Positions 46,885 to 50,098 of a stretch of DNA of 64,000 bases are shown here, piece after piece (within the stretch, counting starts at the first letter, position 1; each line of letters starts with the position of its first letter). Source of the DNA: an uncultured Candidatus Binatia bacterium (lineage in GTDB: Bacteria; Desulfobacterota; Binatia; UBA9968; JAJDTQ01); contig OZ244070.1 of NCBI GenBank assembly GCA_965215605.1, forward strand, positions 3,232,001 through 3,296,000, in the 5' to 3' direction. A program made the position numbers and the translations under genes. A model generated the notes under the pieces. That model was given only the letters and a program-made list of their open reading frames with translations. It made no database searches and was not told the DNA's origin.

Positions 46885-47334
46885 ATGGACCACCGCGCCA
46901 ACCTCCTGGAACGGGACGACGACATTCAGGACCTGATCGCCTCGGTCCGCCGCATCGCCGTCCTCGGTATCAAGACCGAGGAGCAGGCCTTCCAGCCGGC
47001 GTTCTACGTGCCGCGGTACCTGGACCGGGCGGGCTTCGACGTGATCCCCGTGCCCGTGTACTACCCGGACGTGACGGAGATTCTCGGCAAGCCGGTGTAC
47101 CGCCGGCTGGCGGACATCCCCGGCGCGGTAGACCTGGTGAACGTGTTCCGGCGCCCCCAAGACATCGACCCGCATCTCGACGACATGCTGGCCGCGAAAC
47201 CCGCGGGGGTGTGGTTCCAGTCCGGCATCCGCCATCAGGCCGTGGCCGAGGCGCTGGCGCGGGCGGGCATCAAGGTGGTCCAGGACCGCTGACTCATGGT
47301 GGAGCACCGGTCGCCGGCGGCGACCGTCCCGTAA
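46885..47334 (+). CDS. YccU-like CoA-binding protein with in-frame TGA (candidate selenocysteine) at 47290
   Basis: IAVLG, DLVNVFRR, VWFQSGI, VVQDR-TGA-LMVEHR; the family C-terminus is normally DRC(L/I)..EH; downstream hairpin at 47308-47326. If TGA is a stop, the ORF ends at 47292. Confidence 0.8.
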
Positions 47335-49249: not shown

Positions 49250-50098
49250 TCACTCCAGCACGAGCGGCGTGTCGTCGCGGTTGGCCCATTCGCCCATGGA
49301 ACCGTCGTAGTTGCGCGCCCGCTCGTAGCCCAGCAGTGTCAGGACGAAGACTCCGTGCGCCGCACGGATGCCGCCCTGTCAATAGGTGACCACTTCCTTG
49401 TCCGGCGGAACCCCCGCCTGTTCCAGCAGGCCGCGCAGTTCCCCGGCCTCCTTCAGGGTCTTGTAGGAGTTGTCCTGCAGGAAGTTGAGCCACTCCAGGT
49501 GCACCGCGCCCGGTATGCGGCCCGCGCGCTTGTTGCCGCGGTCGTTGGCGCCCGTCCACTCGCCGTCGGACCGCACGTCCAGGTACACCACGTCCGGATT
49601 GCCGACGTTGGCCGTCCCGTAGTCCAGGGTGCACACGAGGTCCGGGTTGGCCTTGGGGTTGAAGACCGCGCCCTGGGGCTTCGGCACGTCCAGAGTCATG
49701 GGCCGTCCCTCGTCGAACCACTTCTTCCAGCCGCCGTTGAGCACGGTGACATCGTCATGGCCGTAGTAGTTCAGCACCCACCACAGGCGCGCGGCCCACA
49801 GGGAACCGTTGCTGTCGTAGGCCACCACCCGCGTGCCTTCGCCGATGCCCAGGCTCTCCATCACTTCCTTGGCCGTGTCCGGAGGCGCCACCAGGGGATA
49901 CTTCCGGTTGTCCGTGTCGTAGCCCGGCTGCTTGATGTAGTGATGCACGCGAATTCCCGCGGCGCCCTTGATGTGGGCCCGACGGTAGACGTCGAAGGGG
50001 TCGCAGTCCACGATGCGGATGTCCGGGTCATCCAGGTGCTGCTCCAGCCAGTCCGTCTCCACCAGCAGCTCCGGCCGGGCGTAGCCTTCCTCTGTCAT
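49250..50098 (-). CDS. Two-domain rhodanese sulfurtransferase with in-frame TGA (selenocysteine) at the catalytic position
   Basis: HIKGA, AARLWWVL, LNGG, GRIPGA; VVTY-TGA-QGGIRAA...NYDGSMGEW continues in frame to a stop at 49250; hairpin at 49352-49368. Confidence 0.88.

Follow-up and report, generated by a model that had tools for sequence, protein, structure and literature searches.

Comparative evidence for a recurrent selenocysteine-for-cysteine replacement in a YccU/YneT-type CoA-binding protein of soil bacteria

In a stretch of 64,000 nucleotides (nt) from the genome of an uncultured Candidatus Binatia bacterium (GenBank assembly GCA_965215605.1, contig OZ244070.1, positions 3,232,001 to 3,296,000 of the forward strand), hereafter referred to as the window and numbered from its first letter, we have characterized a gene at positions 46885–47334 that contains an in-frame TGA codon close to the end of its reading frame. 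The best explanation, to which we assign a probability of about 0.85, is that this gene encodes a selenoprotein form of a YccU/YneT-type coenzyme A (CoA)-binding protein, where selenocysteine (Sec) has taken the place of a conserved cysteine (Cys). That the TGA is decoded as Sec, and that this reflects a real and recurrent replacement within the family, appears very probable from the comparison of related genomes, in which both the context of Sec recoding and the homology of the Cys position are supported. The protein would thereby define a Sec/Cys selenoprotein family that is decoded by the ordinary bacterial system and that is probably undescribed.

Results

The candidate gene and its product

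Starting from an ATG at 46885, the reading frame proceeds through ...GIKVVQDR to the TGA and continues from there with LMVEHRSPAATVP to a TAA. Fifteen nt 3′ of the UGA begins a hairpin whose arms CGGTCGCC (47308–47315) and GGCGACCG (47319–47326) enclose a GGC loop at 47316–47318, with a distance of 23 nt from the UGA to the start of the loop. The start codon, TGA, hairpin and stop codon are located exactly where an earlier examination of the letters alone (the sequence-only reading) had placed them, and the resulting features, all on the forward strand, are as follows, where SECIS denotes the selenocysteine insertion sequence:

46885..47334, + strand: gene of the CoA_binding_2 family (YccU/YneT-type) for a protein of 149 residues with predicted Sec at residue 136, assigned by its PF13380 and TT1466 matches
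47290..47292, + strand: in-frame TGA, presumably read as Sec (U136), at the conserved Cys column D-R-C, assigned by Sec/Cys pairs and the alignment to YneT Cys126
47293..47331, + strand: 13 codons following the Sec codon, encoding LMVEH (family motif) and RSPAATVP (clade-specific tail holding the hairpin), assigned by conservation
47308..47326, + strand: SECIS-like stem-loop with a perfect stem of 8 base pairs (bp) and a GGC triloop, assigned by SECIS constraints and its association with TGA
47332..47334, + strand: true stop codon TAA, assigned by the reading frame

Upon translation through the TGA, the protein matches the Pfam family CoA_binding_2 (PF13380) with an E of 3.3e-33 and a score of 115 bits at a cut-off of 22.8, in an alignment of residues 22–141 that spans the TGA and covers positions 1–115 of the 116 positions of the profile. 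Eight relatives of known structure were also matched, the best of them TT1466 (PDB 1iuk, E 5e-28), which aligns up to residue 142. The motif D-x-C-[LIM] found at the C-terminus of the family is present, with U replacing C, and from its homology the window protein is predicted to bind CoA. At E 0.001 or better the family comprises 3,314 representative clusters. A search of the read-through protein against NCBIfam gave no matches and no family model, and no match was obtained when the window was searched with Rfam at gathering thresholds. In public gene calls the protein ends at residue 135, and the 135-residue product ending in ...VVQDR is stored unnamed in a public protein collection.

Sec and Cys forms share the same alignment column

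Sixty-one related genomes were searched with the read-through protein and the codon aligned to residue 136, hereafter the column, was read in all 34 orthologues returned. It is TGA in 10 cases (five each from the genera g1 and g5) and TGC or TGT in 24, and it is followed by LMV[E/D]HR in 34 of 34. Apparent internal stops in two genomes (G055 and G054) turned out to be the real stops of those genes. The whole order contains 123 genomes, 70 of which match at E 1e-30 or better. The orthologues of 20 more of these, fetched subsequently, contain 16 TGA (12 in g5 and 4 in a third genus, g271) and four Cys codons, giving for the order a total of 54 examined orthologues with TGA in 26 (5 g1, 17 g5 and 4 g271) and Cys in 28. 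Among the remaining 16 matching genomes, the match table shows no TGA in 15 and one TGA in the unpublished genome G489; none of our claims rests on this genome or on G472 and G474, which are equally unpublished.

Cys dominates the column elsewhere. Two of 109 loci from a sample of the phylum and from the nearest records contain TGA, both in the two nearest metagenome-assembled genomes (MAGs) of Binatia, and the other 107, from other phyla and genomes, contain Cys without exception (103 identified by regular expression and 4 by eye). Cys is also found in the three solved homologues with printed alignments. A scan of a collection of species genomes with a degenerate DNA word for VVQDR-TGA-LMV, which misses Sec forms with other flanking residues, recovered 25 TGA loci. 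Three of these have the g1-type and 20 the g5/g271-type tail, and overlap with order genomes already counted is to be expected. The remaining two are new and belong to MAGs titled Candidatus Rokuibacteriota and Candidatus Methylomirabilota, in the following called the Rokubacteria forms, both with SelA in the genome. Several of the genomes with a TGA form are complete chromosomes. The sequence-only reading had proposed that Cys was replaced by Sec and that TGA/TGC pairs should then recur among relatives. Such TGA and TGC/TGT pairs are indeed found across many genomes, and the TGA is not a peculiarity of a single assembly. Together with the conserved downstream codons and the Sec machinery described below, they favour the proposed replacement.

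The sequence following the TGA behaves as coding

LMV[E/D]H follows the TGA in every TGA form, which agrees with the expectation of the sequence-only reading that this block would be retained. In the 15 nt preceding the TGA, the mean pairwise nucleotide identity is 1.0 among g1 TGA forms, 0.83 among those of g5 and g271 and 0.82 between these clades. The corresponding values in the 15 nt following it, which encode LMVxH, are 0.95, 0.95 and 0.81, and those beyond the true stop are 0.58, 0.28 and 0.25. Within 21 sequences of g5 and g271, the variable codons for L, D and G change synonymously only. Two replacements found as singletons both reside in the hairpin, where one (F to S) affects position 3 of the loop and the other (A to V) turns a G-C into a G-U pair, and a change from F to Y at one further locus likewise concerns loop position 3. 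The small number of amino-acid changes beyond LMVxH are located in the hairpin, with the pairing of the stem and the GU of the loop retained. In light of the high identity after the TGA and the nearly synonymous nature of the changes, the LMVxH block behaves as coding sequence.

Features of the SECIS-like hairpin

In the model of bacterial SECIS elements summarized in a May 2026 review (PMC13188914, legend to Figure 2), a stem of 4–16 bp carries a loop of 3–9 nt with a G in its first two positions, in most cases GG or GU, which is found 16–37 nt from the UGA, and the minimum free energy is −7.5 kcal/mol or lower. The hairpin of the window is in accordance with this model (8 bp, GGC, 23 nt and −15.6 kcal/mol with an extended stem), as are those of all three clades with TGA forms, which have stems of 7–8 bp with a GGC loop at 23 nt in g1, of 6–8 bp with GU[U/C/A] at 20 nt in g5 and g271, and of 7–8 bp with GCUC at 20 nt in Rokubacteria. 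On its own, the published model has little specificity in GC-rich DNA. We have employed a strict pattern, consisting of a perfect stem of 7 bp or more and a triloop G[G/U]N located 16–37 nt after the TGA. In the window's genome, 11,885 frames with a length of 100 codons or more end in TGA, and 11 of them match this pattern. These 11 matches include five known selenoprotein-family genes (with selD excluded), the candidate itself, one genuine stop and four other frames that have a low third-position GC content and are probably not coding. The genuine stop belongs to an sthA-like transhydrogenase gene (G000:C1:1516533-1518128), where the TGA is followed by an 8-bp hairpin with a GGA triloop at 24 nt. 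We rejected this gene as a selenoprotein since its family model ends before the TGA, leaving the hairpin as a false positive of the pattern. A version of the pattern with a stem of at least 6 bp, applied to the 54 orthologues of the order, is matched by 25 of 26 TGA forms, the 26th passing with one G-U pair, and by none of the 28 Cys forms.

The closest Cys forms of g1 end in ...HRSL-stop, with codons that already contain most of the 5′ arm sequence, suggesting that the extension of the tail to HRSPAATVP may have supplied the 3′ arm. The g1 sequences would in this way illustrate a route by which a bacterial SECIS can arise. In three g1 Cys forms (L018, L024 and L019 from G027, G018 and G008) we observed an irregular hairpin whose loop, GAC, is located 26 nt past the Cys codon and which could be either a product of chance in GC-rich sequence or a SECIS remnant or precursor.

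Sec machinery and other selenoprotein genes

The genome containing the window (4.06 Mb in 8 contigs, 97% complete) encodes the full decoding system whose presence the sequence-only reading had named as a check. We identified SelA (E 7.5e-154), SelB by its wing domain, a tRNA-Sec (selC, 73 bits) with the anticodon TCA, and a selD whose own motif G-U-A-A-K includes Sec encoded by an in-frame TGA. The genes selD, selB and selA are adjacent (G000:C1:1984272-1988341) and located outside the window. SelA is likewise encoded by 10 of 10 genomes with a TGA form in the first sample and by the two Rokubacteria MAGs. A general reassignment of TGA was rejected, since likely genes of the window's genome end more often in UGA (1,493 of 2,956) than in either other stop codon and since in several orthologues a TGA terminates the frame a few codons past Sec.

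As positive controls, we located genes of known selenoprotein families in the same genome, whose hairpins are listed below by stem length, loop and distance of the loop from the UGA, with the candidate in the final line:

selD: 8 bp, GUC, loop 33 nt after the UGA
GrdB-family, two genes (TIGR01918, E about 6e-147; C1:1888249-1889559 and C1:684558-685892): 7 bp, GGC, loop 18 nt after the UGA
Two-domain rhodanese-like gene, U in UQGGIR: 7 bp, GGC, loop 17 nt after the UGA
SQR-type-III-like gene, HTIU (C1:3828464-3829678; best match NF049943, below its cut-off): 8 bp, GGA, loop at 18 nt
UGSC-family gene (C1:3130686-3131200; best match NF041046, below its cut-off): 9 bp, GUG, loop at 19 nt
CoA-binding candidate of the window: 8 bp, GGC, loop 23 nt after the UGA

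The hairpin of the candidate shares its design with those of the known selenoprotein-family genes. A Sec-containing FdhA was not found in the window's genome. In five g5 genomes, selD contains TGA in 5 of 5 cases, followed in three by a perfect hairpin of 7–9 bp with a GUG, GUC or GUU loop at 33 nt, whereas in the other two our scan detected none at that position. The same five genomes (G037, G040, G490, G494 and G495; L299–L310) each encode 4–6 paralogues of selenoprotein B from the GrdB family whose frames contain TGA. In most of them the UGA is followed, at 18 nt, by a 7-bp hairpin with a GGC triloop that hardly differs between the copies. This complement is unusually large for a soil lineage.

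The rhodanese-like gene listed above resides in the window itself, 2 kb from the candidate (49253–50098, − strand; TGA at 49379–49381 and hairpin at about 49352–49368). It encodes a sulfurtransferase whose UQGGIR active-site loop is of the UxxG type as described in the 2026 review (PMC13188914), and it is the first gene of a run on the minus strand that also includes an EamA transporter and a rhomboid gene and that is convergent on the CoA-binding gene.

Independent origins of the Sec form

In a quick maximum-likelihood tree of 55 orthologues, the g1 TGA forms are placed within a g1 clade with a starred support of 100 whose other members contain Cys, and the TGA forms of g5 and g271 within a separate clade with a starred support of 96. 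A second tree of 129 rows (29 TGA and 100 Cys, with one partial row left out) groups the two Rokubacteria forms as a pair with a starred support of 98, next to Cys forms from Acidobacteriota. This tree needs four changes of state, at least three of which are forced by starred branches. The three TGA clades are 60–66% identical to each other and their tails are distinct, reading HRSPAAT[VFI]P in g1, HRRFAG... in g5 and g271, and HRQLCR and HRRLRRSGGR in Rokubacteria. The replacement of Cys by Sec thus appears to have arisen at least three times independently. A single Sec allele passed on between the clades by transfer was rejected as an explanation, given their dissimilar tails and hairpins and their separation in the tree.

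One genome (G497; L171, G497:C65:81576-83204) contains a lone Cys form that is nested in the TGA clade of g5. Its stem CCGGCG/CGCCGG is kept, and its loop is CUU instead of GUU as a consequence of a synonymous change of an Arg codon from CGG to CGC. This form likely represents a reversion from Sec to Cys that was caught soon after the event and was followed by a relaxation of the loop.

Discussion

Role of the Cys/Sec column

Sec substitutes Cys almost exclusively at reactive and usually redox-active positions, and its appearance in the family marks the column as a reactive redox site. The distinguishing properties of Sec compared to Cys are a lower pKa, a higher nucleophilicity and reversible oxidation (PMC11431864). 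The column harbours the sole Cys or Sec, counted to six residues past it, in 27 of the 29 forms with TGA and in 96 of the 100 with Cys. With no internal resolving Cys, any S-S or Se-S bond would therefore be made with another molecule. One such molecule has been identified in a homologue. In spores of Bacillus subtilis, Cys126 of YneT was found by liquid chromatography–tandem mass spectrometry (LC-MS/MS) to be disulfide-linked to CoA, a modification termed CoAlation, in a study that gives the function of the protein as unknown (PMC8127865), and a 2025 preprint names YneT among redox proteins that are increased in spores formed at high salinity. An orthologue from B. spizizenii, obtained via the peptide printed in PMC8127865, aligns to the window protein over 129 residues (E 7e-19, 28% identity) and places MDLC-IKVAH on QDRU-LMVEH, the aligned Cys being residue 126 if numbered from the Met that gives the 135-residue form. 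The redox role that the sequence-only reading had attributed to the position thus gains independent support from the published CoAlation of a homologous Cys. In a sister subfamily of CoA_binding_2 (P0033, P0080, P0094, P0095, P0124 and P0129), we observed D-C-I-G-C or C-I-L-C, with a CxxC motif that starts at the column, the conserved Cys being its first residue, and with a different C-terminal tail.

In the mechanism that we propose, SelB and tRNA-Sec would decode the UGA at 47290–47292 as Sec, guided by the 8-bp hairpin with its GGC triloop, and translation would continue for 13 codons to the TAA. Sec would occupy the place of the single conserved Cys, usually the sole Cys of the protein, which would hold CoA in a Rossmann-like pocket. 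The Cys or Sec could then form a reversible mixed disulfide or selenenylsulfide with the thiol of CoA, and the protein would act as a carrier, buffer or relay of CoA thiols, either in CoAlation and de-CoAlation or in the handling of CoA disulfide or CoA persulfide. Sec would speed up the exchange and resist irreversible over-oxidation. We consider it quite possible, at odds slightly below even, that residue 136 bonds reversibly to the thiol of bound CoA. Two observations weigh against it, namely the low identity of YneT to the window protein (28%) and the gene neighbourhood, where among 80 loci only an SDR gene recurs (19 of 80) and no functional clue was found. In the window, the neighbours are an amidohydrolase and an SDR gene in divergent and a rhomboid and an EamA transporter gene in convergent orientation.

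Alternative explanations

The strongest competitor, which has a substantial minority chance, accepts the insertion of Sec and assigns it a role other than a mixed selenosulfide with CoA. The residue might be a persulfide or perselenide carrier operating with sulfurtransferases, a nucleophile for acyl transfer from acyl-CoA via a selenoester, a partner in an intermolecular Se-Se or Se-S bond within a dimer or with another protein, or a ligand for metals. A partner that is external in the absence of a resolving Cys need not be CoA, the function of the family is given as unknown (PMC8127865 and the 2025 preprint), and the genome encodes an SQR-III-like selenoprotein besides the Sec-containing rhodanese-like sulfurtransferase found 2 kb away. 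The latter is located on the opposite strand, however, and no conservation of its linkage to the CoA-binding gene was evident, whereas the sole direct chemistry described at the column is the CoA disulfide on Cys126 of YneT (PMC8127865) and the domain has a CoA-binding fold.

It is rather improbable that the gene serves to make two products in a ratio set by the selenium supply, one of 149 residues and one of 135 residues that terminates at the UGA and is devoid of the Cys/Sec and the last helix. Such an arrangement might be suggested by the location of Sec just 13 codons from the end and by the prevalence of UGA among stop codons, which would let the release factor compete at every Sec codon. 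Yet LMVEH following the column is conserved across phyla, inside the region that aligns to solved homologues, and the 135-residue form, which loses this conserved element, is more likely a by-product.

A still much less probable reading takes the TGA as a real stop, giving a shortened protein without the Cys, with a hairpin that is incidental or a structure at the end of the transcript. Gene callers do terminate at this codon, and several observations weigh against its decoding as Sec. Sec insertion itself is inferred from comparative sequence evidence. The genomes with TGA are related, which reduces the 26 cases to about three events, and a sample of the phylum outside the order (401 genomes, 84 matches) contained TGA only in the genome to which the window belongs. 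The folding energy of a 61-nt stretch is no better than that of shuffled sequences (z 0.17), hairpins of similar and ordinary energy also follow the Cys codons (mean of the best local hairpin −12.2 kcal/mol for TGA and −11.1 kcal/mol for Cys forms, Mann–Whitney p 0.36, in genomes that are GC-rich), and since the energy carries no signal we have not used stability as evidence. The strict pattern underlying the counts of 11 in 11,885 frames and 25 in 26 TGA forms was set after examples had been seen. The stems in either of the two Binatia clades barely vary except for one change from G-C to G-U, so that they show almost no covariation, and although two of seven pairs are compensatory between the two Rokubacteria hairpins, 105 of 500 shuffles reach the same level. 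The hairpin emphasized in the sequence-only reading is thus upheld by its form and its association with TGA but not by its energy, and the covariation anticipated there is absent from the Binatia clades and confined to these two pairs between two sequences. Still, a real stop is difficult to reconcile with a frame that is open past the TGA and keeps LMV[E/D]H in three clades as divergent as those described, with a form of hairpin that tracks TGA (25/26 vs 0/28) and resembles the hairpins that come after Sec codons in known selenoprotein-family members of the same genomes, and with the retention of Cys in every other homologue examined. Finally, a sequencing or assembly error or a pseudogene, for which nothing more than the stop codon itself could be invoked, is practically negligible given the presence of TGA in 26 genomes of the order and at 25 loci of the species collection, as a change of a single column with zero frameshifts.

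Novelty and implications

As the best explanation of our data, a selenoprotein form of a YccU/YneT-type protein would likely be an addition to the prokaryotic selenoproteome, with the Sec form present in several lineages of soil bacteria. Table 1 of PMC13188914, described in this review as the most comprehensive inventory, lists 119 families and subfamilies of prokaryotic selenoproteins. The whole of this table is devoid of a PF13380, YccU or YneT entry and contains the term 'CoA' only for three other families, one of which is CoA-disulfide reductase. The term is also absent from the main texts of deep-Sep (PMC12013277) and BSepDB (PMC13326102), whose supplements might list the family. Our literature searches found nothing relating PF13380, COG1832 or CoA_binding_2 to selenium, nothing on the function of YccU, and nothing relevant on PH1109 or TT1466 or on selenoproteins that bind CoA. 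The suspicion of the sequence-only reading that the family is new is thus in line with its absence from the 119-family inventory and from the models of NCBIfam. Since gene callers truncate the protein and no curated model exists, the Sec form has been missed in every annotation of Binatia and Rokubacteria.

The three independent replacements, together with the CoAlation of YneT, lead to a testable hypothesis on CoA-thiol chemistry for a widespread protein of unknown function. Whether the window protein is the first selenoprotein whose Sec acts directly on CoA, as a dedicated small carrier that forms an Se-S bond to its thiol, appears doubtful at present. If this were the case, the function of YccU and YneT would be that of a relay for CoA thiol or CoA persulfide, which either writes or erases the CoAlation of proteins or protects the CoA pool, and soil Binatia and Rokubacteria would have upgraded an active Cys to Sec on three or more separate occasions.

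Comparison with known systems

YneT from B. subtilis, a putative CoA-binding protein of 135 residues, shares the Pfam domain of the window protein, and the function is unknown in both. It differs by having Cys instead of Sec, by its origin from a Gram-positive spore former and by its sequence, which is 28% identical, and a SECIS is neither present nor needed. The structurally characterized relatives TT1466 (1iuk/1iul), PH1109 (2d59/2d5a/2e6u) and 2duw, which were matched with E values of 5e-28, 2.5e-15 and 4.1e-16, contain D/N-R-C at the column and thus all have Cys where the window protein has Sec. In TT1466 the motif is exactly DRCLMVEH (within ADRCLMVEHK), equal to that of the window protein apart from Cys for Sec.

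The rhodanese-like, UGSC and SQR-III families listed in Table 1 of PMC13188914 were found computationally and defined by Sec/Cys pairs together with a bacterial SECIS, and they are comparable with respect to this type of evidence, the decoding system and the similarity of their hairpins. Compared to the families of this table, the window protein contains neither a UxxC nor a CxxU motif and would rely on Sec as its sole redox residue. A precedent for Sec acting on the CoA thiol/disulfide couple is provided by the Sec-containing CoA-disulfide reductase of the same review (TIGR03385, UGxP). This enzymatically defined protein is of unrelated fold and belongs to the pyridine-nucleotide disulfide oxidoreductases, which depend on flavin adenine dinucleotide (FAD), whereas the window protein is devoid of a flavin domain.

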